From NCBI RefSeq assembly GCF_000010625.1, contig NC_010296.1, positions 3,120,001 through 3,152,000 on the forward strand: 32,000 bases of DNA. Reading direction: 5' to 3'. The DNA is from Microcystis aeruginosa NIES-843 (lineage in GTDB: Bacteria > Cyanobacteriota > Cyanobacteriia > Cyanobacteriales > Microcystaceae). The notes beneath the pieces are model-generated. The model did no database searches. It saw only the letters and a program-made list of their open reading frames with translations, and was not told where the DNA came from. This document shows positions 9,863 to 32,000 of this stretch, piece after piece (position 1 is the first letter of the stretch; the number at the start of each line of letters is the position of its first letter). Made by a program: the position numbers and the translations under genes.

Positions 9863-11002
9863 GTGGTTGCCATTTCAGATCAACAACAGTTAGCCGCTAC
9901 CCACAACCACAGCGATCGAGTGGCGGTATTATTGATGGGATACGGGGAAGTGGAGAGTTATGAGGACTTCGCCAACTATAATGAACAGGCCTTGAATCTG
10001 CTGACGGCTAAGTTCGCTCCCGTACCGACTTGGGTTTATCCTCCCCTAGCGAAATTATTGGCCCTATTTGACCTACACGAATGGCAGCACCAGCATAATC
10101 ACTTTATTTCGCCCCATAACCACATTTTCGAGCATCAAAGACAGGAAATCGAGCGCAATTTACAGGCAAAATGGGGTAATCGGGTGGAGGTATTCAAAGC
10201 GTTTAACTTCTGCGCGCCTTTTTTACCGGCACAGGTGTTAACGGAAATCCGCGAACGGGGATTCGAGAAAATTTTGATCTATCCTCTCCTCGTGGTTGAT
10301 TCTATCTTCACCAGTGGCATTGCCATCGAACAAGTTAACAAAGCTTTAGCTCAGGGACAAACGGGGGAACATTGGGTCAAAGGATTGCGCTACATTCCCT
10401 CGTTTTATAACCAACCCGCTTATATAGAGCTAATGGCGCGGTTAGTGGAGGAAAAAATCGCTGCTGAGGTAGCTAGTAGCTGTCTTCCCTCGCAAATTGG
10501 CATTATTTTAATGAATCACGGTTGTCCCCACGAAGCTAAGGGATTTACGTCGGGAATCGATGAAAGTCAAGCTTTATACGAGTTGGTCCGGGAAAAATTA
10601 ATCTATCGTTATCCCTTGATTTCTGTGGGTTGGTTAAATCACCAAACCCCCTTAATTAAATGGACGCAACCGAATGCAGAGTTAGCGGCGAAGAATTTAA
10701 TCGAATTGGGGGCAAAAGCCTTAATTTTCATGCCGATTGGCTTTGCTACGGAAAATCACGAAACTTTACTGGATGTGGAGCATATTATCGAAGCTTTACG
10801 CCGCAAACACGACCAAGTTAATTATGTGCAGATGGCCTGTGTCAACGATAACCCCGAATTTTGCCAGATGGTCGCCGATTGGGCCGAGGAACATATCGAA
10901 GCTTTACTATCACAAGAGGCTTTATCTGTCAATACTTCTGTAACAATTCCTCACATTCATTCCGATCACCATCATCACCACGGACACCACCACCATCATT
11001 AA
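9863..11002 (+). CDS. ferrochelatase-family (class II chelatase) protein with His-rich C-terminus
   Basis: Ferrochelatase-like blocks are VAVLLMGYGE, IYPLLVVDSIFTSG, LMNHGCPHE and FMPIGFATENHETLLDVE. There is no C-terminal CAB/transmembrane segment. The tail is HIHSDHHHHHGHHHHH. The start is GTG. Confidence 0.7.
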   Translation: MVAISDQQQLAATHNHSDRVAVLLMGYGEVESYEDFANYNEQALNLLTAKFAPVPTWVYPPLAKLLALFDLHEWQHQHNHFISPHNHIFEHQRQEIERNLQAKWGNRVEVFKAFNFCAPFLPAQVLTEIRERGFEKILIYPLLVVDSIFTSGIAIEQVNKALAQGQTGEHWVKGLRYIPSFYNQPAYIELMARLVEEKIAAEVASSCLPSQIGIILMNHGCPHEAKGFTSGIDESQALYELVREKLIYRYPLISVGWLNHQTPLIKWTQPNAELAAKNLIELGAKALIFMPIGFATENHETLLDVEHIIEALRRKHDQVNYVQMACVNDNPEFCQMVADWAEEHIEALLSQEALSVNTSVTIPHIHSDHHHHHGHHHHH

Positions 11003-11090
11003 GCTTGGACAGTGGCAAAGAGGGGCAACGGCGAAAATTAGTCCTACCACTTGTCACTTTTGGAAGTATAATCTATAATTGTGCTTTCCT

Positions 11091-11163
11091 GGGTACGTAG
11101 CTCAATGGATAGAGCATCCGCCTTCTAAGCGGACGGTTGTAGGTTCGATCCCTACCGTACCCG
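11091..11163 (+). tRNA. tRNA-Arg (anticodon UCU)
   Basis: Hand-folded cloverleaf. Acceptor gggtacg/cgtaccc, D arm gctc-aatggata-gagc, anticodon stem tccgc/gcgga with loop cuUCUaa, T arm gtagg-ttcgatc-cctac, discriminator G. No encoded CCA. Confidence 0.9.
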
Positions 11164-11273
11164 TTATTGTTAAGTAGGGATGGGAAATTCTCTCCTCTTG
11201 TCCCGGGGACAATCGCTTTGACGCGGTGAGCGTCGAATTGGGGCAGTTGAGTCCCGTCAGTTGATATTAATTG

Positions 11274-11430
11274 TGTTTAATTTAGTTTGCGATCGAGTTG
11301 AAGCGCAGTCAAGGGAGAAGGCAAAGGCGAATCAGACATACTGCGTCACAATATCTCACGGAATGAGGATATACAGCCTGAGAAGGAGTAAAACAAGAGA
11401 AACTACCTGAAACTCCTTCTTCTGTGCATC
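11274..11430 (+). repeat. cassette-associated conserved repeat, copy a
   Basis: About nine in ten positions match copy b over about 128 bp, judged by eye. It shares the core gacatacYgcgtcacaatMYctcacggaa and the tail cctgaRactccttcttctgtgMatc with copy c. It ends 4 bp before the stop of 11434-11631 (-). Confidence 0.7.
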
Positions 11431-11433
11431 CCT

Positions 11434-11631
11434 CTATTTAATAGTTTGCCCTCTTTGCAATAGCCTTTCTCGTCTCTTTTGACGGGATTCTGTTTCCAGT
11501 TGGGCGAGTATATCGTCTAAAAAAAGATTATAAAGCTCAATCTGGCGGTTAGTTTCCCGTAAGCTTTCAAGACATTGTTTTCTCGTTGCTTCATCGGGAT
11601 AGGAGGTGCGGTAAGTCATCATAAGTTCCAT
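11434..11631 (-). CDS. hypothetical small charged helical protein (65 aa)
   Basis: The ORF overlaps the upstream gene by 13 nt, an arrangement consistent with translational coupling. No family is recognised. Confidence 0.5.
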   Translation of the reverse strand: MELMMTYRTSYPDEATRKQCLESLRETNRQIELYNLFLDDILAQLETESRQKRRERLLQRGQTIK

Positions 11632-11966
11632 TGCCTCTTTACTTCATCAACACTAGCACTAACAGCATCCACATTGGCTGTTCCTTGCAAAATCGCTCTT
11701 TCTAACATCTCTAGCATCGTATTTGAGAGAGTCGGCTGCTCTTGTAAAATTCTCAGCAGGATATTATTAATTCGGGAGTAGGAATTAGTTACCCTCTCTC
11801 TGGCATTAGATAATTCTTCTAATTCTGATAATGTCCGTTCATTTTCCCCATATTCTGTAAAAAGTTGCCATTCCGTTGCCGATGCGTACTCTATCTGATC
11901 CGCTAGTTGACGCAGTAGATCAAAAATGCTCGTTAAGGTTTCCTCCGGTAATGTAGCCATATTCAA
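11619..11966 (-). CDS. hypothetical helical protein (115 aa)
   Basis: First gene of an overlapping two-gene unit. No family is recognised. Confidence 0.5.
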   Translation of the reverse strand: MNMATLPEETLTSIFDLLRQLADQIEYASATEWQLFTEYGENERTLSELEELSNARERVTNSYSRINNILLRILQEQPTLSNTMLEMLERAILQGTANVDAVSASVDEVKRQWNL

Positions 11967-13001: not shown

Positions 13002-15077
13002 CCCACATTCCGCACCCTCAACTGTCACATAAGCTGTCCCCCGCCAGAGACTTGAGTAAAAATACCTAGCTGGTGAAGGTTTTCTCGGTGGCCGCTAGGG
13101 GGGTCTTGAGACCCCTAATTATGAAAAAATAGGAATTGTTGGAAAACTGAGGCGAGTGGACTGTTCGACCATGAATCAATCAACAGAAATTGAAGTCAAA
13201 AATCTAGACCATCTGGGATTAGTAGCCGGAATTATCGATGAAATAGGAATCGTTGAAATTATCAACGAACAAGTCTCAATTGAGCGAGGAGAAATTGTCA
13301 CAGCTGGGCAAGTCGTGAAAGCAATTATCCTGAATGGATTGGGATTTGTCTCCCGAGCCTTGTATTTATTTCCTCAATTTTTTGAAGATAAAGCAACCGA
13401 ACATTTGCTGGGAGAGGGCATCGAACCAAAACACCTGAATGATGATAAAATTGGTCGAGTAATGGACAAACTTTATCAACTTAATGTTTCGGTCATTTTC
13501 CTACGGATTAGTTTAGCGGCCGTGAAAAAATTTGGTGTAGCAACCGAGAACTCCCATTTAGATTCGACTTCTCTATCAGTAGAAGGAGAATATAACAAGG
13601 AATACCCAACAGTAGAAATCCTGAAATCAGGAGCAGTGGGAGAAGAAATTGAAACCAGACAACAGCCAATAAAAATTACCTACGGATACTCCCGCGACCG
13701 AAGACCTGACTTAAAACAATTTATGATTGACTTAATCGTAAGTGGGGATGGAGATGTACCTTTATTCCTGAAAGTAGGGGACGGAAATGAAGCGGACAAA
13801 GCGGTTTTTGGTCAAATCGCCCGAGAATTTAAAAAACAAGTTGACTTTGACAGTTTAATAGTCGGCGATAGCGCCCTCTATAGCAAAGAGAATTTAAAAC
13901 TAATGAAAGAAATGCGTTGGTTGTCTCGAGTACCATTAAGCATTAAAGAGGCTCAAGAGTTGGTTGATAGCATCTCAGAAAAAGAGTTAACCGATTCAGA
14001 AATACCGGGTTATTCCTGGCGGGAAACCATCTCTAACTATGGGGGGATAGAACAAAGATGGTTGCTAGTTGAAAGTCAAGCTAGACAAGAATCAGACTTG
14101 AAAAAATTAGAGAAAAAAATCGAGCAGGAAAAGAATTCTGCCCAAGAAAAAATCCGGCAACTATCCCGAAGAGAATTTGAGAATAGAGCGGTGGCGTTGG
14201 CGATAGCCAAAGGATTATCTGACTCCTTAAAATCTCATCAGTTAACGGAGATTAAAGTCAATCTCATTCCGCCTGAGTCCCAGGGGTCAAAACTCAAATC
14301 AAAAGACGATTTACCCTCTCAAAGCTATCAAGTTCAAGCCGAATTAGAGTTGAATTTGACCGCCATTGAGAGGCTAAAGAAACGAGCAGGACGATTCGTT
14401 TTAGCAACTAACGATTTGGAGAAACAACGATTAAGCAGTGAGGATATACTCAAAAAATATAAAGGGCAACAAGCTCCGGAAAGAGGATTTTCTTTTCTCA
14501 AAGACCCCTGCTTTTTTGCCCACAGTGTCTTTCTCAAATCTCCCCATAGAATCGAGGTCATGGCCATGCTCATGGGCTTGTGCCTGCTGGTTTATACTAT
14601 TGGTCAAAGACAACTTCGTTTAAGTTTAAAACAGCAGGAGACGGGACTGAAAAATCCGTTGGGTAAGTTAACTGACCGACCGACGTTACGCTGGATATTT
14701 CAGGGCTTTCAAGGGATTCATCTCGTCCGTATTCAAGACAATCAAAAGATTAGCAACTTAACGGATGAGAGGCGCAACATTTTGAGATTTTTTCCCAAAC
14801 CTTGCCAGGAATATTATCTCTTATCTTGACCAGATGGATTGACTTCAAGGGGTGACAAAACAAAGCGAGCAACTGGAACATCTCCCCCTAGATGTTAAGT
14901 CTGATTGCCTAGTCATTCTCAACAAGCACTGTTTATTGAGAATGACCGGGGGAACTCTGAAATTTTCGGCTTAGTTGCCGGCAGCTTGCCGCCAACTCAC
15001 TCCTCTAGATAAGTATTTTGACTCGCGCCCCTTCCTCTTTTGAGACGTTGTGACACTTAGGGTGCGGAATGTGGGTT
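13002..15077 (+). mobile_element. IS1634-family (IS4-like) element, copy B, intact
   Basis: Imperfect terminal inverted repeats are cccacattccgcaccctcaactgtcaca (left) and tgtgacacttagggtgcggaatgtggg(tt) (right). It contains a full 557-aa transposase ORF. Boundaries are good to about 2 bp. No target duplication is recognisable. Confidence 0.9.
13156..14829 (+). CDS. IS1634-family transposase
   Basis: Uninterrupted 557-aa ORF; the likely true start is the ATG at 13171 (MNQSTEIEV…). The N-terminal NLDHLGLVAGIIDEIG pattern is typical of this family. Confidence 0.9.
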   Translation: MDCSTMNQSTEIEVKNLDHLGLVAGIIDEIGIVEIINEQVSIERGEIVTAGQVVKAIILNGLGFVSRALYLFPQFFEDKATEHLLGEGIEPKHLNDDKIGRVMDKLYQLNVSVIFLRISLAAVKKFGVATENSHLDSTSLSVEGEYNKEYPTVEILKSGAVGEEIETRQQPIKITYGYSRDRRPDLKQFMIDLIVSGDGDVPLFLKVGDGNEADKAVFGQIAREFKKQVDFDSLIVGDSALYSKENLKLMKEMRWLSRVPLSIKEAQELVDSISEKELTDSEIPGYSWRETISNYGGIEQRWLLVESQARQESDLKKLEKKIEQEKNSAQEKIRQLSRREFENRAVALAIAKGLSDSLKSHQLTEIKVNLIPPESQGSKLKSKDDLPSQSYQVQAELELNLTAIERLKKRAGRFVLATNDLEKQRLSSEDILKKYKGQQAPERGFSFLKDPCFFAHSVFLKSPHRIEVMAMLMGLCLLVYTIGQRQLRLSLKQQETGLKNPLGKLTDRPTLRWIFQGFQGIHLVRIQDNQKISNLTDERRNILRFFPKPCQEYYLLS

Positions 15078-26018: not shown

Positions 26019-26205
26019 GGTTCTTCGTTACTTGGTATGGTTCGATAGGGGGGCATAAATCGACTAAATCCTTATCTGGCAAGAGACTTAATTGATTAGT
26101 TCGCTCTAGATAAAAAACAATTGACAAAAATCGCTAAATGCCTTTCTATATAAGGGTTCCATCCCTTATAACCCCCGTCCATTGCATAACAATTACCGAA
26201 GAGCC
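26019..26205 (-). mobile_element. ISL3-derived MITE, copy 1 (187 bp)
   Basis: Termini are ggttcttcg… (26019) and …cgaagagcc (26205). A perfect 8-bp duplication aagataat lies at 26011-18 and 26206-13. It is colinear, in inverse orientation, with 30948-31134. Its ends resemble those of the ISL3 element at 5876-7297. Confidence 0.85.
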
Positions 26206-26326
26206 AAGATAATTAAATATCCTTTTTCCTGAGGATTCTTGGTAATTTCCCTAATATCTTCTAACTTGATCCCACTCATCTTAATACCTCTAGAGACTAC
26301 AGATAACTGGCTGTTAAAAATTGTCA

Positions 26327-27136: not shown

Positions 27137-28723
27137 CTATCCATTAGTCACATCTTTCTTAACATAAAATTTGACAAAAAGAGAAAAGTGTGCCAGATGG
27201 CTCAAGGGGGTTCTATGGGGGAACTAATTTGATGCGATAGTTTCCAAGTCTGGCTGATATCATGTAACCTTCGCAGTCCCAACCAAATAGTTTTAACACC
27301 TGGTTCACCGTCGCCTTTTCTACCTAAAAACCCCCCAAGAGAAGCAATCATTCTGACTGCTTCCCTAAAGGAGGGCGGCTTTTCAGGTGGCGGACTCTTT
27401 TTCTGAATAGTGGCACACAAAGATTGCCATTCATGTTCTTCCAAAAAACTTTCACAACTCTCCTCTCCGTGTAAGCGTGCTTGATAGGTTAACCAAAGTA
27501 ATCTCCAAGCTACAATTGAATAGGTAGCTAAAGCCATCTCAATTCTCCGACCCGTTTCTAATTGCAGTTTTTCTAATCCACAACCACTTTTTAAAACAAA
27601 ATGATAGCGTTCTATTAACCAGCGATAACTATACCAGCGCACACAGGTTATCGCCGATTCAAAGCTACTAATGTCTAGGCTAGTTAAGAGGAGCCAACTG
27701 ATAGGATTAACTCCGGGACGCGGATTTTCTTCTTCAGCTAAAATTACCTGTAATTTGACCGGTTGACGAGGGTTCGCTTTCGAGTGATGCTTAGGTACTT
27801 GTATTTCAAAACTGGCAAATCTAACTGTTAGTTTAGCTAGTCTAGCCTCGTGATTAGGATTGCGTTTTACTTGCACATCTAGGCTACCACAGGCTTTTAT
27901 TTCTCTGATGGATTGATGTAAATATTTAGGCTCTGGATGCCCTGACTTTTGCTTGTCTTCGAGATAGTTAACTTTTCGGTTATGAGTTCCTCGGATTAAT
28001 AAATGAGAGTTAGGACTTCTTGATTGGGCAAATAAATCAAATATGTCTGCCTCACAATCTCCGATTGTTACTACTTGAATTTCTTCGGGTATTTGTTGTT
28101 GTGTTTCTGATAAAGAATCTAACCATCTTTGACTTTCTTTTTCTTGGGTTTCTCTTTTTTTGCGTTGCTTGGCAATCCCTAAATTCTTTTCTTCTCTTGC
28201 CCAGACCTATTGATTAATCAGTCCTAAAGGTATTCCTTGCGGTGACACTCCTAATGTGGTATGAACTTTGAGACCAAAGGATTTTTTATAATCTAGATAA
28301 CCCATTCCTTTTTTGGCTTTTTGCGTCGTAAAGTCTAAACTTGTTGTGTCTTGCACTGCCAAAACTATTGGATGTTCTTTGATTCTTTCTACTGTACTTT
28401 TGGCTTGGGCGGCAATTAGATCTGAGGGGTGAAAATAGGGGGAATTCCAAAAGTCGTAGGTGGCACTCGCTGCGGCTAGATTTCCCGAAGCTTGTGGCAC
28501 ACTTGTACTAGGTTGGCTGGCCAAGTTTTCTACGATACTGATTAACCTTTTCTTTCTTCTGGTGTCCCCTAGGTCTGCATACTGTAATTCTTGGGCTGCC
28601 CATTTCTCCATTTTTTTGCTTACCTCCACCTTAATTCCTTCTTTCAAAACTATACCTATCAATCGTTTCCCCTTTTTTTAAGTTTCTTCTCTTTTTGTTA
28701 AGAAAGATCCGACTAATGGATAG
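27137..28723 (-). mobile_element. IS4-family (Tn5/IS50-like) element
   Basis: Terminal inverted repeats are ctatccattagtcacatctttcttaaca (27137-) and the reverse complement of ctatccattagtcggatctttcttaaca (-28723). No matching target duplication is present. Confidence 0.8.
27202..28662 (-). pseudogene. IS4-family transposase inactivated by a single in-frame TAG
   Basis: Track ORFs 28207-28662 and 27202-27876 and the stretch between them are one continuous frame (…GLINQ*VWAREEKNLG…TIGDCEADIFDLF…SLDVQVKRNPNHE…). The only stop is TAG at 28206-28204. The N-terminus has the Tn5-like pattern (LGDTRRKKRL…ATYDFW). Confidence 0.85.
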
Positions 28724-28997
28724 CTTATCAAGGGGGGCAGGGGGGATCAAACCCCCCTTATCAAGGGAGATCCCCCCGCCTACCGGCACCCCCCTTATCA
28801 AGGGGGGCAGGGGGTATCGGCACCCCCCTTATCAAGGGGGGACTAAGGGGGTATCGGCACCCCCCTTATCAAGGGAGATCCCCCCGCCTACCGGCACCCC
28901 CCTTATTAAGGGAGATCCCCCCGCCTACCGGCACCCCCCTTATCAAGGGGGGCCGGGGGGATCGAACCTAAAATCCATTTTTAATTTAATTATAACC
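28724..28997 (+). repeat. tandem array of seven 33-37-bp hairpin-forming units plus conserved tail
   Basis: ttatYaagg cores start at 28725, 28758, 28795, 28829, 28866, 28903 and 28940. Each sits in ccccccTTATCAAgggggg-type palindromes. Two unit types alternate. Track ORF 28695-29021 is only a translation of this repeat. Confidence 0.85.
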
Positions 28998-29130
28998 AGC
29001 CATTTATTATCTCAAGAATAATCTCACAGATCGCTATCAATATCGCTGATTGCCTCTAATGATTACCAATCAGTTTAAGAGGTTGGAAGGGTTCTTTTTC
29101 AGACTCGATCTCCTCTAAAAAATATTACAA

Positions 29131-30480
29131 TCAATCGCTTTTGATATACGCTTTAAAAATAGATGATAATTGAAATCGGTTTTGCTCCCTTTGAATTAAA
29201 TAACGTTGTTGCAAGGATTGTAAACCATTGATTAAATCACTGGCGGATAAATCTAGGTTATTTTTTAACTCCTCTCTAGATAAAGGTTGATTAACTTTAC
29301 TTAATTCTAAGGCGATTTGTTGAGCAAGGGGAGAACAGCGACCAAAAATTTGTTTTAAATGAGACTGCATTTTTTTTGTAATAACTAAGCTATTTTCTGC
29401 CAAGAAATCGTTAACCTTGCCATCAAAAACATCTTTAATCAAAACGGCAATATCGGTTAAATAAAAAGGATTACCTTCGTATAATTGAATTAATTCTAAC
29501 CATCTTTCTTCATCTTGTAAACCTTTATTTTCAAGAAAATTAATCGCTTCAAATCCTGATAATTCTAAGCATTGAATAGGAGAACTTTCTTGATTAAGAT
29601 AGTTCATTTCTGCCGATTTTTCTTGACTAATGAGAATAAAATGGCTCTGGTGTTGGATTTCTGCGATCAGTTTTAAAAAATGTTGATAACTACTATATTC
29701 AGGTTGATAATTACCCGCCATTTGACCAACAGCAAAAAGATTTTGAAAATCATCTAAGACGATTAAACATTTATGATTGCTTAGAACTTCTAACAATTGC
29801 TGGATTTTATTATCGGTGCTTTCTTTCGGTTCTTTTTGGCAAGTATTCAATAAATCATTTAGCCATAAATCTAAAGACTTAGGAAATTTTAAACTTTTCC
29901 AAATCACCACTTCAAATTGTTCTAAATTGAGATCAATAAATCGTTTAACTAGGGTGGTTTTTCCTATTCCCCATAATCCCAAAACGGCAATTAAGCGAGT
30001 ATTTTGCTTAAACACCCAGTTCGAGACTGTTGCGAGTTCGTTTTCTCGATCGTAAAAATCAATAATTTGAGGAGCAAGGGTTAGATCATGATATTTTGAT
30101 TCAGATTGAGAGTTATTATTACTATTTAAGTCATTTTCGTTAGACAATCTTGTATTTTCTGTAGGACAAAGATTATTATTATTGCCATTAATACTATAAA
30201 TATTAGAATTTTTTAATGATTTAATATACACTCTTTCTAAGACAGAACGGGAAGTAGATTTTTTTATATCTTTTTCTAAAACCTCTGATAAAAGCTTCCA
30301 TAATTTAGCACCTTCCTCTCTAATATGAGTCTCACTGCGGTGATATTCGTTACCTATTTCTTGATAACTCTGTCCTTGCCAACTCCCTTCAAAAATAGCC
30401 TTCTGGATAGTATTTAGCGGCTTTTTATCTCGCTCAATAAGGCGTTCATCAATCAGTTGTAAGACTTCCGTGATATTCAT
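29131..30480 (-). CDS. STAND-class P-loop NTPase (N-terminal HTH-like domain + NB-ARC + winged helix), no repeat sensor domain
   Basis: Walker A is VLGLWGIGKTTLV and Walker B is CLIVLDDFQNLF. The N-terminal LNTIQKAIFEGSWQGQSYQEIGNEY…GAKLWKLLSEVL pattern is common at the N-termini of cyanobacterial NB-ARC/NACHT-WD40/TPR proteins. The C-terminal LSREEL…LQSLQQRYLI looks like a winged helix. Confidence 0.8.
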   Translation of the reverse strand: MNITEVLQLIDERLIERDKKPLNTIQKAIFEGSWQGQSYQEIGNEYHRSETHIREEGAKLWKLLSEVLEKDIKKSTSRSVLERVYIKSLKNSNIYSINGNNNNLCPTENTRLSNENDLNSNNNSQSESKYHDLTLAPQIIDFYDRENELATVSNWVFKQNTRLIAVLGLWGIGKTTLVKRFIDLNLEQFEVVIWKSLKFPKSLDLWLNDLLNTCQKEPKESTDNKIQQLLEVLSNHKCLIVLDDFQNLFAVGQMAGNYQPEYSSYQHFLKLIAEIQHQSHFILISQEKSAEMNYLNQESSPIQCLELSGFEAINFLENKGLQDEERWLELIQLYEGNPFYLTDIAVLIKDVFDGKVNDFLAENSLVITKKMQSHLKQIFGRCSPLAQQIALELSKVNQPLSREELKNNLDLSASDLINGLQSLQQRYLIQREQNRFQLSSIFKAYIKSD

Positions 30481-30726
30481 ACAATCGACACAGCAAAAGA
30501 CTTTTGGGTATTATAGCCCAACTAAATCCCACTTTTTCCAATTTTTAGAAAAATTTACCCGACAAAACTCCCGATAAAATCCGATGTTTAGGGATTGTCA
30601 CTTTTTGGAAGCGTTTGGCATGATGGAATGTAGTTAAGCAAAACAGACCTAAAACTAACCATATCTAACTCAGCGACGCTAGTTCTAAGTATTATTGCTT
30701 ATGTCTCAGTTTAACGTAGGTATTTT

Positions 30727-30912
30727 ATGACGAAGTTCGTTTTAGACAAATATGCGCTCGATTCTAAAAAATCAGAAGCTAAGGCAAAAATCGTCGGTTC
30801 ATTGGGTTCAAATGCCTCAATTTCAGGGGATCAGATAGAAGTACCCAGTTATGACGCGAGTAAAGTGGTTCAGATTTTAAGTCAAGTTGGTATCAAGTAT
30901 TCGGGGGGTTAA
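30727..30912 (+). CDS. hypothetical small protein (61 aa)
   Basis: ORF only, with no recognisable family and a weak RBS. It is divergent from the STAND gene and on the same strand as the downstream GTPase. Confidence 0.35.
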   Translation: MTKFVLDKYALDSKKSEAKAKIVGSLGSNASISGDQIEVPSYDASKVVQILSQVGIKYSGG

Positions 30913-30947
30913 TTTAGGCGACTGTTACCCTAACGCCTTATGTTTTT

Positions 30948-31134
30948 GGCTCTTCGGTTTGTGTTATGTAATAGACGGGAGTCATAAGGGATGAAAATCT
31001 TACAGAGAAAGACATTTTGCGATTTTTGTTAATCGTTTTTGATCTAGAACGAACTAATCAATTAAGTCTTTTGCCAGATAAAGATTTAGCCGATTTATGC
31101 CACCCGATCAAACCATACCAAGTAACGAAGAACC
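30948..31134 (+). mobile_element. ISL3-derived MITE, copy 2 (187 bp)
   Basis: Termini are ggctcttcgg… (30948) and …cgaagaacc (31134). The flanking tgttttt is repeated (30941-47 / 31135-41). It is the same length as copy 1 and colinear with it. Track ORF 31017-31226 lies inside it and is spurious. Confidence 0.85.
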
Positions 31135-31164
31135 TGTTTTTTGTACTAAATTTTTATCAATACT

Positions 31165-32000
31165 ATGTCATTCCAGCAATCAAACATATCTTCCGCCCAA
31201 GAAAAAGAAATCAGGGAACGCATTGATGCCGAGCGGAATAAACCTCTGGTTGTAGTCGTAATGGGACAAACTGGAGTCGGTAAGTCTTCCCTTATCAACG
31301 CCTTGTTTGGAACAAAGCTCAAGACCAATGACGTACAGCCAGAAACAAAGTCCCCAGAGAAGCATATTGAAAAAGGTTCTGATCACTCTGAGTTATGGTT
31401 CTGGGATATGCCTGGAATTGGGGAATCTTCTTCTGCTGATAGTGGATACTTGAATGACTATCGCCAAAAAATTCTGGAGGCAGATGTTGCTTTATGGCTT
31501 TGTCATGCAGACAGTCGCTCAGTAACGTTTGATGTTGAAGCGATACATAAAATTCTTGAGGGTTTAACAGATGGCGAGAAATCTCTGATTCTTAGTAAAC
31601 TCACTTTTGTTCTTAGTAAGGCTGATTTGATCACACCAGAGCCTTGGATTTTATATCGCTCAGGCAATGAAGTTGTATTTGATACAACTGAAAAAACTGA
31701 AAAATTACTGAATGCAAAAGCTGCATATTTCAAAGAAGCATTGCTAACACCGCATAGTAAAAATTTCGTTTCCAAAACATTTCATGATGGAACATTTCAG
31801 CTACGATTGTCACATTTAACTTATGACAAGAATTTTACCTATTATTCGGGAATAATGACTGTATCACATCTTAGAAAGTTACAAGAAGAGTATCCAAATT
31901 ATTCTGATGTATTTAAGAGACTCTATCACAACTCAGAAGTAATCTACTGCTCTTCTCGCTTCAAATATAATCTTGCAAAACTAATGCAAGTGATCGTTGA
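31165..32000 (+). CDS. TRAFAC-class GTPase (YfjP/YeeP / MMR_HSR1-like), 3' end beyond the window
   Basis: My own translation from the ATG at 31165 has no stop through 32000 (278 codons). G1 is GQTGVGKSSLINALFG, G3 is WDMPGIGE and G4 is LSKAD. It is absent from the supplied ORF track because it has no stop in the window. Antisense track ORFs 31146-31328, 31180-31386 and 31503-31775 are shadows of it. Confidence 0.8.
   Translation, partial: MSFQQSNISSAQEKEIRERIDAERNKPLVVVVMGQTGVGKSSLINALFGTKLKTNDVQPETKSPEKHIEKGSDHSELWFWDMPGIGESSSADSGYLNDYRQKILEADVALWLCHADSRSVTFDVEAIHKILEGLTDGEKSLILSKLTFVLSKADLITPEPWILYRSGNEVVFDTTEKTEKLLNAKAAYFKEALLTPHSKNFVSKTFHDGTFQLRLSHLTYDKNFTYYSGIMTVSHLRKLQEEYPNYSDVFKRLYHNSEVIYCSSRFKYNLAKLMQVIV

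Follow-up and report, generated by a model that had tools for sequence, protein, structure and literature searches.

MalT and GutR are cited as STAND transcription factors (PMC13581612), and AfsR/SARP proteins bind direct repeats that lie 11 bp apart, one helical turn, and overlap the −35 element (PMC10936776). AfsR/SARP appears to be the closest mechanistic precedent, with GutR and MalT as further ones, for a locus at the end of a 32,000-nucleotide stretch of the Microcystis aeruginosa NIES-843 genome (NC_010296.1, positions 3,120,001 to 3,152,000; hereafter the window), where the gene for a 449-residue STAND NTPase faces away from a small open reading frame (ORF) and a GTPase gene. We consider it probable that this protein is a sequence-specific, nucleotide-switched regulator of the transcription of interchangeable divergent cargo, in the manner of GutR, AfsR and MalT. 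The genes, domains and promoters at the locus are known from computation alone, which establishes the domain architecture, a conserved divergent layout, a promoter with a repeat array, co-variation of these repeats with the recognition helix of the protein, and the swapping of cargo cassettes. Our literature search found no paper on this short STAND family or its divergent cargo. The regulator gene and the adjoining control region comprise the following features (the cargo genes are given further below):

29131 to 30480, minus strand: STAND NTPase with helix-turn-helix (HTH), NB-ARC and winged-helix parts, 449 aa, complete (ORF list)
30208 to 30480, minus strand: HTH domain, residues 1–91 of the STAND protein
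residues 92–126 of the STAND protein: disordered linker (AlphaFold2, AF2, model)
residues ~127–449 of the STAND protein: NOD
30481 to 30726: intergenic region of 246 bp between the STAND gene and the 61-aa ORF
30510 to 30517, minus strand: predicted −10 box GCTATAAT of the STAND promoter, 30–37 nt upstream of the ATG, at the same position in 42 loci
30518 to 30547, minus strand: proximal cluster of about three 10-bp direct repeats with yGG cores at −40, −51 and −60, overlapping the −35 region; predicted operator
30558 to 30587, minus strand: distal cluster of three direct repeats with TCGG cores at −81, −93 and −103, adjoining the cargo-side promoter; predicted operator
30595 to 30624, plus strand: cargo-facing promoter-like site (TTGTCA, 18 nt, TG-CATGAT), a consensus match only

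The 449-aa protein is a STAND NTPase of the NB-ARC/AP-ATPase clade, with a nucleotide-binding domain (NBD) that bears Walker A and B motifs, an ARC1 helical domain and an ARC2 winged helix. Over residues 142–311 it exceeds the Pfam cut-offs for NB-ARC (33.1 bits, cut-off 23.5), NACHT (33.3 bits) and ATPase_2 (35.0 bits). Walker A occupies G168–T175 (GLWGIGKT), Walker B (LIVLDD) ends at D243–D244, and GxxGxGKT, LIVLDD and a GNP motif are conserved. Most Microcystis orthologues read GLGGIGKT in Walker A; the Trp of the window protein, at residue 170 (nucleotide region 30478–29971), occupies a variable position of the motif. In the AF2 model (predicted local distance difference test, pLDDT, 86) a five-helix N-terminal domain (residues 1–91) and the linker are followed by the NBD, helical and winged-helix domains, which extend to the last residue. 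The NOD is closest to plant NLR resistosomes, Apaf-1 and CED-4: a profile search of the PDB returned plant NLR NB-ARC matches of up to 9e-13, including a wheat NLR match that spans NBD-ARC1-ARC2, and the top Foldseek matches were the ZAR1, NRC and Sr35 resistosomes, Apaf-1, CED-4 and MalT.

The modelled N-terminal domain has a tri-helical core (H24–34, H39–45 and H50–68), and orthologues carry a precomputed match to PF26355, HTH_VMAP-M9, at this end. Compared as a profile with the PDB, residues 17–61 weakly resemble HTH regions of transcription regulators, two of the Lrp/AsnC type and two response regulators of the NarL/LuxR type, and one unrelated saposin-like protein also matched; the Pfam value for Sigma70_r4 is 0.062. 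An earlier note on this DNA had described an HTH-like N-terminal domain, an NB-ARC P-loop core and a winged helix, and Pfam, HTH_VMAP-M9 and AF2 agree with that description.

The same note supposed that relatives normally continue into WD40 or TPR repeats, which is true of a minority but not as the norm. A full scan of 1.84 billion representative proteins, clustered at 50% identity, found 4765 relatives; among the best 150 clusters, 104 are 400–500 aa long and match residues 1–448 end to end, and only 10 exceed 700 aa, with WD40 propellers in all five of the long ones that were checked. A C-terminal TPR/SUPR sensor arm is absent from the window protein, which ends at the winged helix (residue 449), and from those 104 clusters. 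The possibility that the 449-aa ORF is a truncated WD40/TPR protein is ruled out by the short form of these 104 clusters, and the protein is complete and full length. It is one of a large family of minimal STAND proteins, specific to cyanobacteria, that combine a LuxR/sigma-region-4-like HTH with a full NB-ARC module and have no sensor repeats. More distant relatives (~30% identity) occur on 89 cyanobacterial plasmids, and phage records encode no relative of either the STAND protein or the GTPase. One plasmid relative, of 1189 aa (L107, Nostoc sp. PCC 7120 pCC7120alpha, 124768–128337), is divergent, across 211 bp, from a giant Ig-domain gene (>3000 aa); its host is a genetically tractable model organism that would be suited to experiments.

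In 42 non-redundant loci from many genera, the 130 nt upstream of the STAND ATG form an ungapped alignment. Outward from the ATG, the order is a GCTATAAT −10 box (at about −37 to −30), the proximal repeats, a central TTTTgTTACAAAAT...AAGCAAAA element and the distal repeats. Self-identity at a lag of 10 is 0.518 in the proximal cluster (0.319±0.013 in shuffles) and 0.412 in the distal cluster (0.287±0.014), so that the 10-bp periodicity lies 9–15 standard deviations above shuffled sequences. A SARP-like period of 11 bp was considered and rejected, as autocorrelation gives 10 bp.

The positions of the repeats are fixed, whereas the repeat unit varies by subfamily (CGGAAAA, CCTGAwAA, ATCTTrAA, GTTCTAAA and others) and tracks the recognition helix of the HTH, which is the most divergent part of the STAND protein. 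CGGAAAA accompanies ...TKNHVGDVG.ELW, CCTGAwAA accompanies ...YDEGYIGDEsR.LF, and ATCTTrAA accompanies ...RSESRVRNvA. Repeats and recognition helices are correlated in a Mantel test (r=0.44), and the correlation persists after controlling for divergence of the NOD (partial r 0.40; p<=0.0005). At least three repeat types are found at loci with GTPase cargo, so it is the regulator that the repeats follow rather than the cargo.

The layout recurs well beyond Microcystis. An alignment of nine sequences retrieved 80 further loci, from Microcoleus, Dolichospermum, Planktothrix, Crocosphaera, Okeania, Trichodesmium and other genera; all 80 genomic loci examined are cyanobacterial, many genomes harbor several paralogues, and database matches run to thousands. 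The nearest upstream gene is divergent from the STAND gene in 71 of 76 usable loci, at a median distance of 198 bp (5–95%: 158–270), whereas the orientation of the downstream neighbor is random (same strand in 31 of 72). GTPases with small helical ORFs form the cargo in 16 of 100 loci, including those of Argonema, Dolichospermum, Anabaenopsis, Phormidium and Microcoleaceae, and IetA-like AAA cassettes and DO-GTPase likewise recur across genera. A DNA methylase with a fused Mrr/NA-iREase1 domain is the cargo in 11 loci, a peptide of ~74 aa with a radical-SAM cassette in 10, and an MvdD-like ATP-grasp enzyme in two, preceded in one of them by a 75-aa peptide. PADLOC recognized nothing in most cargo families, apart from IetA-like and restriction-modification (R-M) methylase matches.

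Two of these cargo families show further regularities. An N6/N4 DNA methylase fused to an Mrr_cat / 'NACHT-associated inactive REase 1' domain is the sole cargo gene in L045, L075, L077, L084, L098 and others, and this fusion always occurs with the CCTGAwAA operator subtype. The radical-SAM cargo of Microcoleus and relatives (L027–L043) comprises five genes in 10 loci, some truncated or one gene short: a 71–74-aa peptide with a Ser/His-rich C terminus, a radical-SAM enzyme, and three further proteins, of 614, 323 (DUF483) and 266 aa. This set has the appearance of a cluster of the ribosomally synthesized and post-translationally modified peptide (RiPP) type, as yet undescribed, under the same regulator.

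A stand-alone HTH_VMAP-M9 protein of 173 aa (L104, 3306–3827; also L105 and L106) lies divergently, at 173 bp, from a 78%-identical GTPase and a 64-aa ORF, and its upstream region has the same arrangement of repeats and central element as the STAND loci. As the stand-alone HTH pairs with the same cassette, it is the HTH, and not the NOD, that is tied to promoter and cargo. This protein carries a second short HTH-like segment at its C terminus; the HTH family thus exists without the NOD.

These loci also bear on a different interpretation, namely that the STAND protein is an immune sensor or scaffold at the protein level, Avs- or NLR-like, which acts physically with the cargo proteins, while HTH and repeats serve only autoregulation. 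The similarity of its NB-ARC module to plant NLRs, Apaf-1 and CED-4 would suit such a role, as would the frequency of NTPase conflict modules among the cargo (GTPases, DO-GTPase, IetA-like AAA) and the overlap of the proximal repeats with the STAND gene's own −35 region. However, the protein contains neither a sensor nor an effector domain; no single interface would fit cargo that ranges from R-M methylase-nuclease fusions through radical-SAM and ATP-grasp peptide cassettes to secreted proteins; an HTH protein lacking the NOD has the same pairing; and a second repeat cluster lies beside the cargo promoter. We regard this interpretation as unlikely.

Transcriptional regulation of exchangeable cargo is also what the alleles within Microcystis suggest. 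In the window, the cargo side comprises:

30727 to 30912, plus strand: 61-aa protein, first cargo-side gene (ORF list)
30946 to 31134, no strand assigned: miniature inverted-repeat transposable element (MITE)-like repeat of 189 bp within the GTPase cassette (repeat copies and termini)
31165 to 32000, plus strand: TRAFAC-class GTPase, ATG at 31165, 278 aa visible, running off the window end

What lies past base 32000 was inferred from L002, an allele whose 330-aa GTPase is identical over the 278 visible residues and is followed on its 3' side by a small helical ORF (called as 63 aa, ending ...WIKRQFS). Near-identical Microcystis alleles retain the STAND gene, the intergenic region and usually the 61-aa ORF, whereas the DNA 3' of the stop codon of this ORF is swapped: pairwise alignments lose homology at that stop codon and regain it at a conserved toxin-antitoxin (TA) block. 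The swapped cassette of L002 spans 10187–11664 (MITE, GTPase and small ORF). The cassettes found after the 61-aa ORF are:

this window and L002: 330-aa GTPase and small helical ORF
other Microcystis alleles: two GTPases and four or five ORFs of ~65 aa
other Microcystis alleles: vWA and 422-aa GTPase
other Microcystis alleles: TerB, IetA-like AAA and two small proteins
other Microcystis alleles: five genes, the last an AAA
other Microcystis alleles: two unknown genes, of 480–520 and ~360 aa

L024 has no 61-aa ORF; its homology with the window stops ~122 nt from the STAND ATG, just past the TTGTCA of the cargo-facing promoter-like site, and a PEP-CTERM protein follows. Comparison of L024 with the other alleles thus defines the constant unit as the STAND gene plus ~120 nt of upstream DNA.

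Smaller rearrangements are found at the same boundaries. A gene for a 123-aa TerB-domain protein occupies 9609–9980 in L002, an insertion that leaves 2 bp to the start of the 61-aa ORF; at other loci this TerB gene sits 3' of the ORF, ahead of the IetA-like AAA. In L001 (10717–10827) and L021 (5262–5372) the 61-aa ORF is partly duplicated: a 36-aa copy (hmmsearch E=1.6e-19) lies ~500 bp 3' of the intact one and looks like a scar of cassette exchange. A repeated sequence of ~120–140 bp, 72–76% identical, occurs in L002 at 11665–11787 and 14366–14505 (also in L003–L008), just 3' of the variable cassette and again upstream of a later TA pair; it might mark the edge of the cassette or act as a promoter common to TA genes.

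Exchange of this kind could in principle be a matter of position alone, the STAND gene merely flanking a recombination hotspot for cassettes to which it has no functional tie. Cassette boundaries in Microcystis are indeed sharp, the slot lies between the STAND block and the conserved TA block, and MITEs and insertion sequence (IS) elements abound. Against this, unrelated genomic contexts and genera show the same divergent layout and spacing, cargo families reappear beside the STAND gene from genus to genus, and the regulatory block travels with it; we give a purely positional link little probability. Both this account and that of a protein-level sensor fit the data less well than the regulator model.

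That the STAND protein, the 61-aa protein and the GTPase are three obligate parts of one dedicated anti-phage or conflict system is scarcely credible and is largely refuted by the comparison of alleles, since, although the three genes lie side by side both in the window and in an identical allele, GTPase cassettes recur beside the STAND family in several genera and the region resembles a defense island, the 61-aa ORF is confined to Microcystis and missing from one allele even there (L024), STAND proteins of 94–99% identity are accompanied instead by vWA and GTPase, TerB and IetA-like AAA, unknown 480- and 363-aa genes or a PEP-CTERM protein, the GTPase and small ORF occur without a STAND gene in three distant genomes, and PADLOC matches no system. 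The earlier note's proposal of the trio as one module falls with it. As to the co-occurrence of the three across cyanobacteria, the divergent STAND–GTPase linkage does recur, in the 16 of 100 loci mentioned, but the 61-aa ORF is not conserved outside Microcystis.

The 61-aa protein is a real, conserved protein: exact copies or variants of 62–98% identity exist in hundreds of Microcystis assemblies, and in every place examined its ORF lies 215–312 bp from a divergent STAND gene for 408–454 aa (680 bp in L002, with TerB inserted). Our searches returned no homologue outside Microcystis. Its predicted structure (pLDDT 92.7) is a ferredoxin-like beta-alpha-beta-beta-alpha-beta fold, for which Foldseek gave generic fold matches only (HMA, UreE and designed ferredoxin folds; best E=0.015). 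A CxxC motif is absent, and the C terminus, YSGG, is nearly invariant. The terminal GG raised the idea of a ubiquitin/ThiS-like protein, which was rejected given the modelled fold, ferredoxin-like and not beta-grasp. The protein may serve the regulator as an accessory or be a first cistron peculiar to this lineage.

The second cargo-side protein is a TRAFAC GTPase of the MMR_HSR1 type (Pfam MMR_HSR1, 3.1e-15, 56.7 bits), with G1 (GQTGVGKS), G3 (DMPG) and G4 (SKAD) motifs in its translation. Nostoc, Spirulina, Actinocrispum and other actinobacteria, Acidobacteria and Ktedonobacteria have homologues of ~330 aa. Three of these contexts were examined (Actinocrispum, Nostoc and Spirulina): in each, an ORF of 62–77 aa from the same small-ORF family lies 3' of the GTPase, and no STAND gene is nearby. 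GTPase and small helical ORF constitute an autonomous two-gene module of conflict type that occurs also without a STAND gene. The best 25 of 49 NCBIfam matches include no family named for YfjP or YeeP, and no direct comparison with YfjP/YeeP was made.

That no named system matches the trio, which the earlier note had not recognized as one, is borne out by PADLOC, whose only hits to the three window proteins are weak ones to PDC-S27 and LeoA. PDC-S27 matches the STAND protein (E=1.1e-9, 35.8 bits) at profile positions 5–302 of 484, that is, in the NTPase core only; LeoA matches the GTPase (1.2e-9) at profile positions 41–174 of 559 only. A LeoA/dynamin-like defense GTPase (~560 aa, with LeoBC partners) was rejected as an identity for this protein, given its 330 aa, the partial profile match and the lack of LeoBC neighbors.

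Within the regulator model, the HTH would bind the two clusters of about three 10-bp direct repeats in a bidirectional promoter region, the proximal cluster at the −35 region of the STAND gene's own promoter and the distal one just upstream of the divergent promoter. Nucleotide-dependent oligomerization driven by the NOD would set several HTHs on one face of the DNA, and the output would be autoregulation of the STAND gene together with switching of the divergent cargo, which in the window would be the 61-aa ferredoxin-fold protein, followed by the MITE, the 330-aa GTPase and the small helical protein. DNA binding by the STAND protein, activation as against repression, dependence on ATP and the input signal are points that we infer only.

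Several observations weigh against this model. Co-variation of repeats and recognition helix is partly confounded by the shared ancestry of a regulator and its adjacent promoter, the repeats are less well preserved in the window itself than in the family consensus, and the cargo-side promoter is a consensus match only; the repeats could serve autoregulation only, and the operon may be interrupted by the MITE that separates the 61-aa ORF from the GTPase. Known STAND regulators carry a ligand-sensing arm that is absent from the short family, and in VMAP proteins the M9 module has been proposed as a sensor rather than a DNA binder (PMC7159879).

If the model is correct, it defines an uncharacterized family of sensor-less NB-ARC transcription switches, and the defense, toxin and peptide cassettes of bloom-forming cyanobacteria would be plugged in behind a conserved regulator-operator unit, which would explain the turnover of cassettes in Microcystis islands. 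New cargo systems could then be discovered through guilt by association, the family would offer a minimal model for the switching of a NOD module without a sensor arm, and its orthogonal HTH-operator pairs could be useful in cyanobacterial synthetic biology. The tempting reading of the locus as a new three-gene defense system is corrected as well.

A broader and more tentative notion is that minimal NB-ARC proteins might be transcriptional master switches of cyanobacteria and not executioners, each paralogue with a private 10-bp-repeat operator and each turning on an interchangeable immune, toxin or peptide cassette upon infection or stress, sensed by the NOD directly or via a cassette-encoded partner. 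Vertebrates have NLR proteins that regulate transcription, CIITA and NLRC5; the cyanobacterial family would, were this notion true, be their bacterial counterpart, and the promoter with its regulator a plug-and-play docking site for defense cassettes.

The surroundings are those of a defense or mobile-element island, as the earlier note had held: within the window, the locus is accompanied by at least seven ORFs for transposases, by toxins of the PIN (two) and PemK (one) families, and by a C5 DNA methylase. The ORF coordinates, the 246-bp gap and the divergent 61-aa ORF and GTPase it had listed are all present, and the MITE it had placed 30 bp upstream of the GTPase start is real, measuring 189 bp where the note gave 187 bp. 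This element stops 30 bp short of the GTPase ATG; an inverted copy, 87% identical, lies at 26019–26207, and another in L008, a different Microcystis genome. It is short, non-coding and multi-copy, and its termini are GGyTCTTCG inverted repeats, which together identify it as a MITE.

Further along, a Tn5-type transposase is split into two minus-strand ORFs (27202–27876 and 28207–28662), one with Tnp_DNA_bind and the other with DDE and Dimer_Tnp_Tn5; L001 has an intact 469-aa copy at the same position, and the split gene in the window is probably a frameshifted pseudogene. Between this remnant and the 3' end of the STAND gene, at 28724–28968, lies a GC-rich tandem array (37-bp unit, ~5.5 copies) with palindromic G6/C6 runs, which yields spurious ORFs and weak, sub-threshold Rfam matches; Rfam found no significant RNA family in 28600–32000.

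Among described systems, a 2024 catalogue of cyanobacterial sigma-like factors lists r4_2*NB-ARC*TPR_MalT as 'SigR' (PMC11119718). It shares with the present family a sigma-region-4-like HTH ahead of an NB-ARC domain in cyanobacteria, but represents a long form with TPR, in a catalogue of domain architectures only that analyzed no targets, operators or cargo. A 2026 survey of STAND proteins focused on sensors of 400 or more residues (PMC13581612). The VMAP-M modules were defined by Kaur et al. (2020) and described as sensors, not DNA-binding regulators (PMC7159879). The vWA-MoxR-VMAP, or GTPase-centered 'ternary', conflict systems (PMC7159879) resemble the family in that Pfam has named its N-terminal module after VMAP middle region 9, in their multicellular or colonial cyanobacterial hosts, and in that some alternative cargoes are vWA and GTPase, TerB and AAA, or DO-GTPase; by contrast, M9 here forms one protein with an NB-ARC module and goes with a conserved promoter. 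Assignment of the locus to a vWA-MoxR-VMAP ternary system was rejected, as the window contains no vWA, MoxR or VMAP-C component and only the M9 module is shared.

Avs/AVAST and the bacterial NACHT anti-phage STAND proteins likewise have a STAND NTPase core, a location in defense islands and diversifying partners. Avs proteins, however, combine a large C-terminal sensor (TPR or other, typically at least 400 aa) and an N-terminal enzymatic effector in one polypeptide, and the short family has neither. An Avs/AVAST-type defense STAND was rejected as an identity for the window protein, which ends at residue 449 with no effector domain and no PADLOC Avs match.

Comparison with AfsR (SARP-NOD-TPR, Streptomyces), GutR (HTH-NB-ARC-TPR, Bacillus subtilis) and MalT/LAL shows clear differences: the window protein ends at the winged helix without a TPR/SUPR arm, its HTH is of the HTH_VMAP-M9 kind (sigma-r4/LuxR-like) and not SARP/OmpR, the repeats recur every 10 bp and form two clusters of three, and the predicted targets are swappable conflict and peptide cassettes rather than a fixed catabolic or biosynthetic operon, the case here being computational only. 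The likenesses lie in a DNA-binding domain fused to a STAND module, N-terminal in AfsR and GutR as it is here, in a regulator gene that adjoins its target genes and, with the SARPs, in predicted sites that are direct repeats about one helical turn apart over the −35 region.

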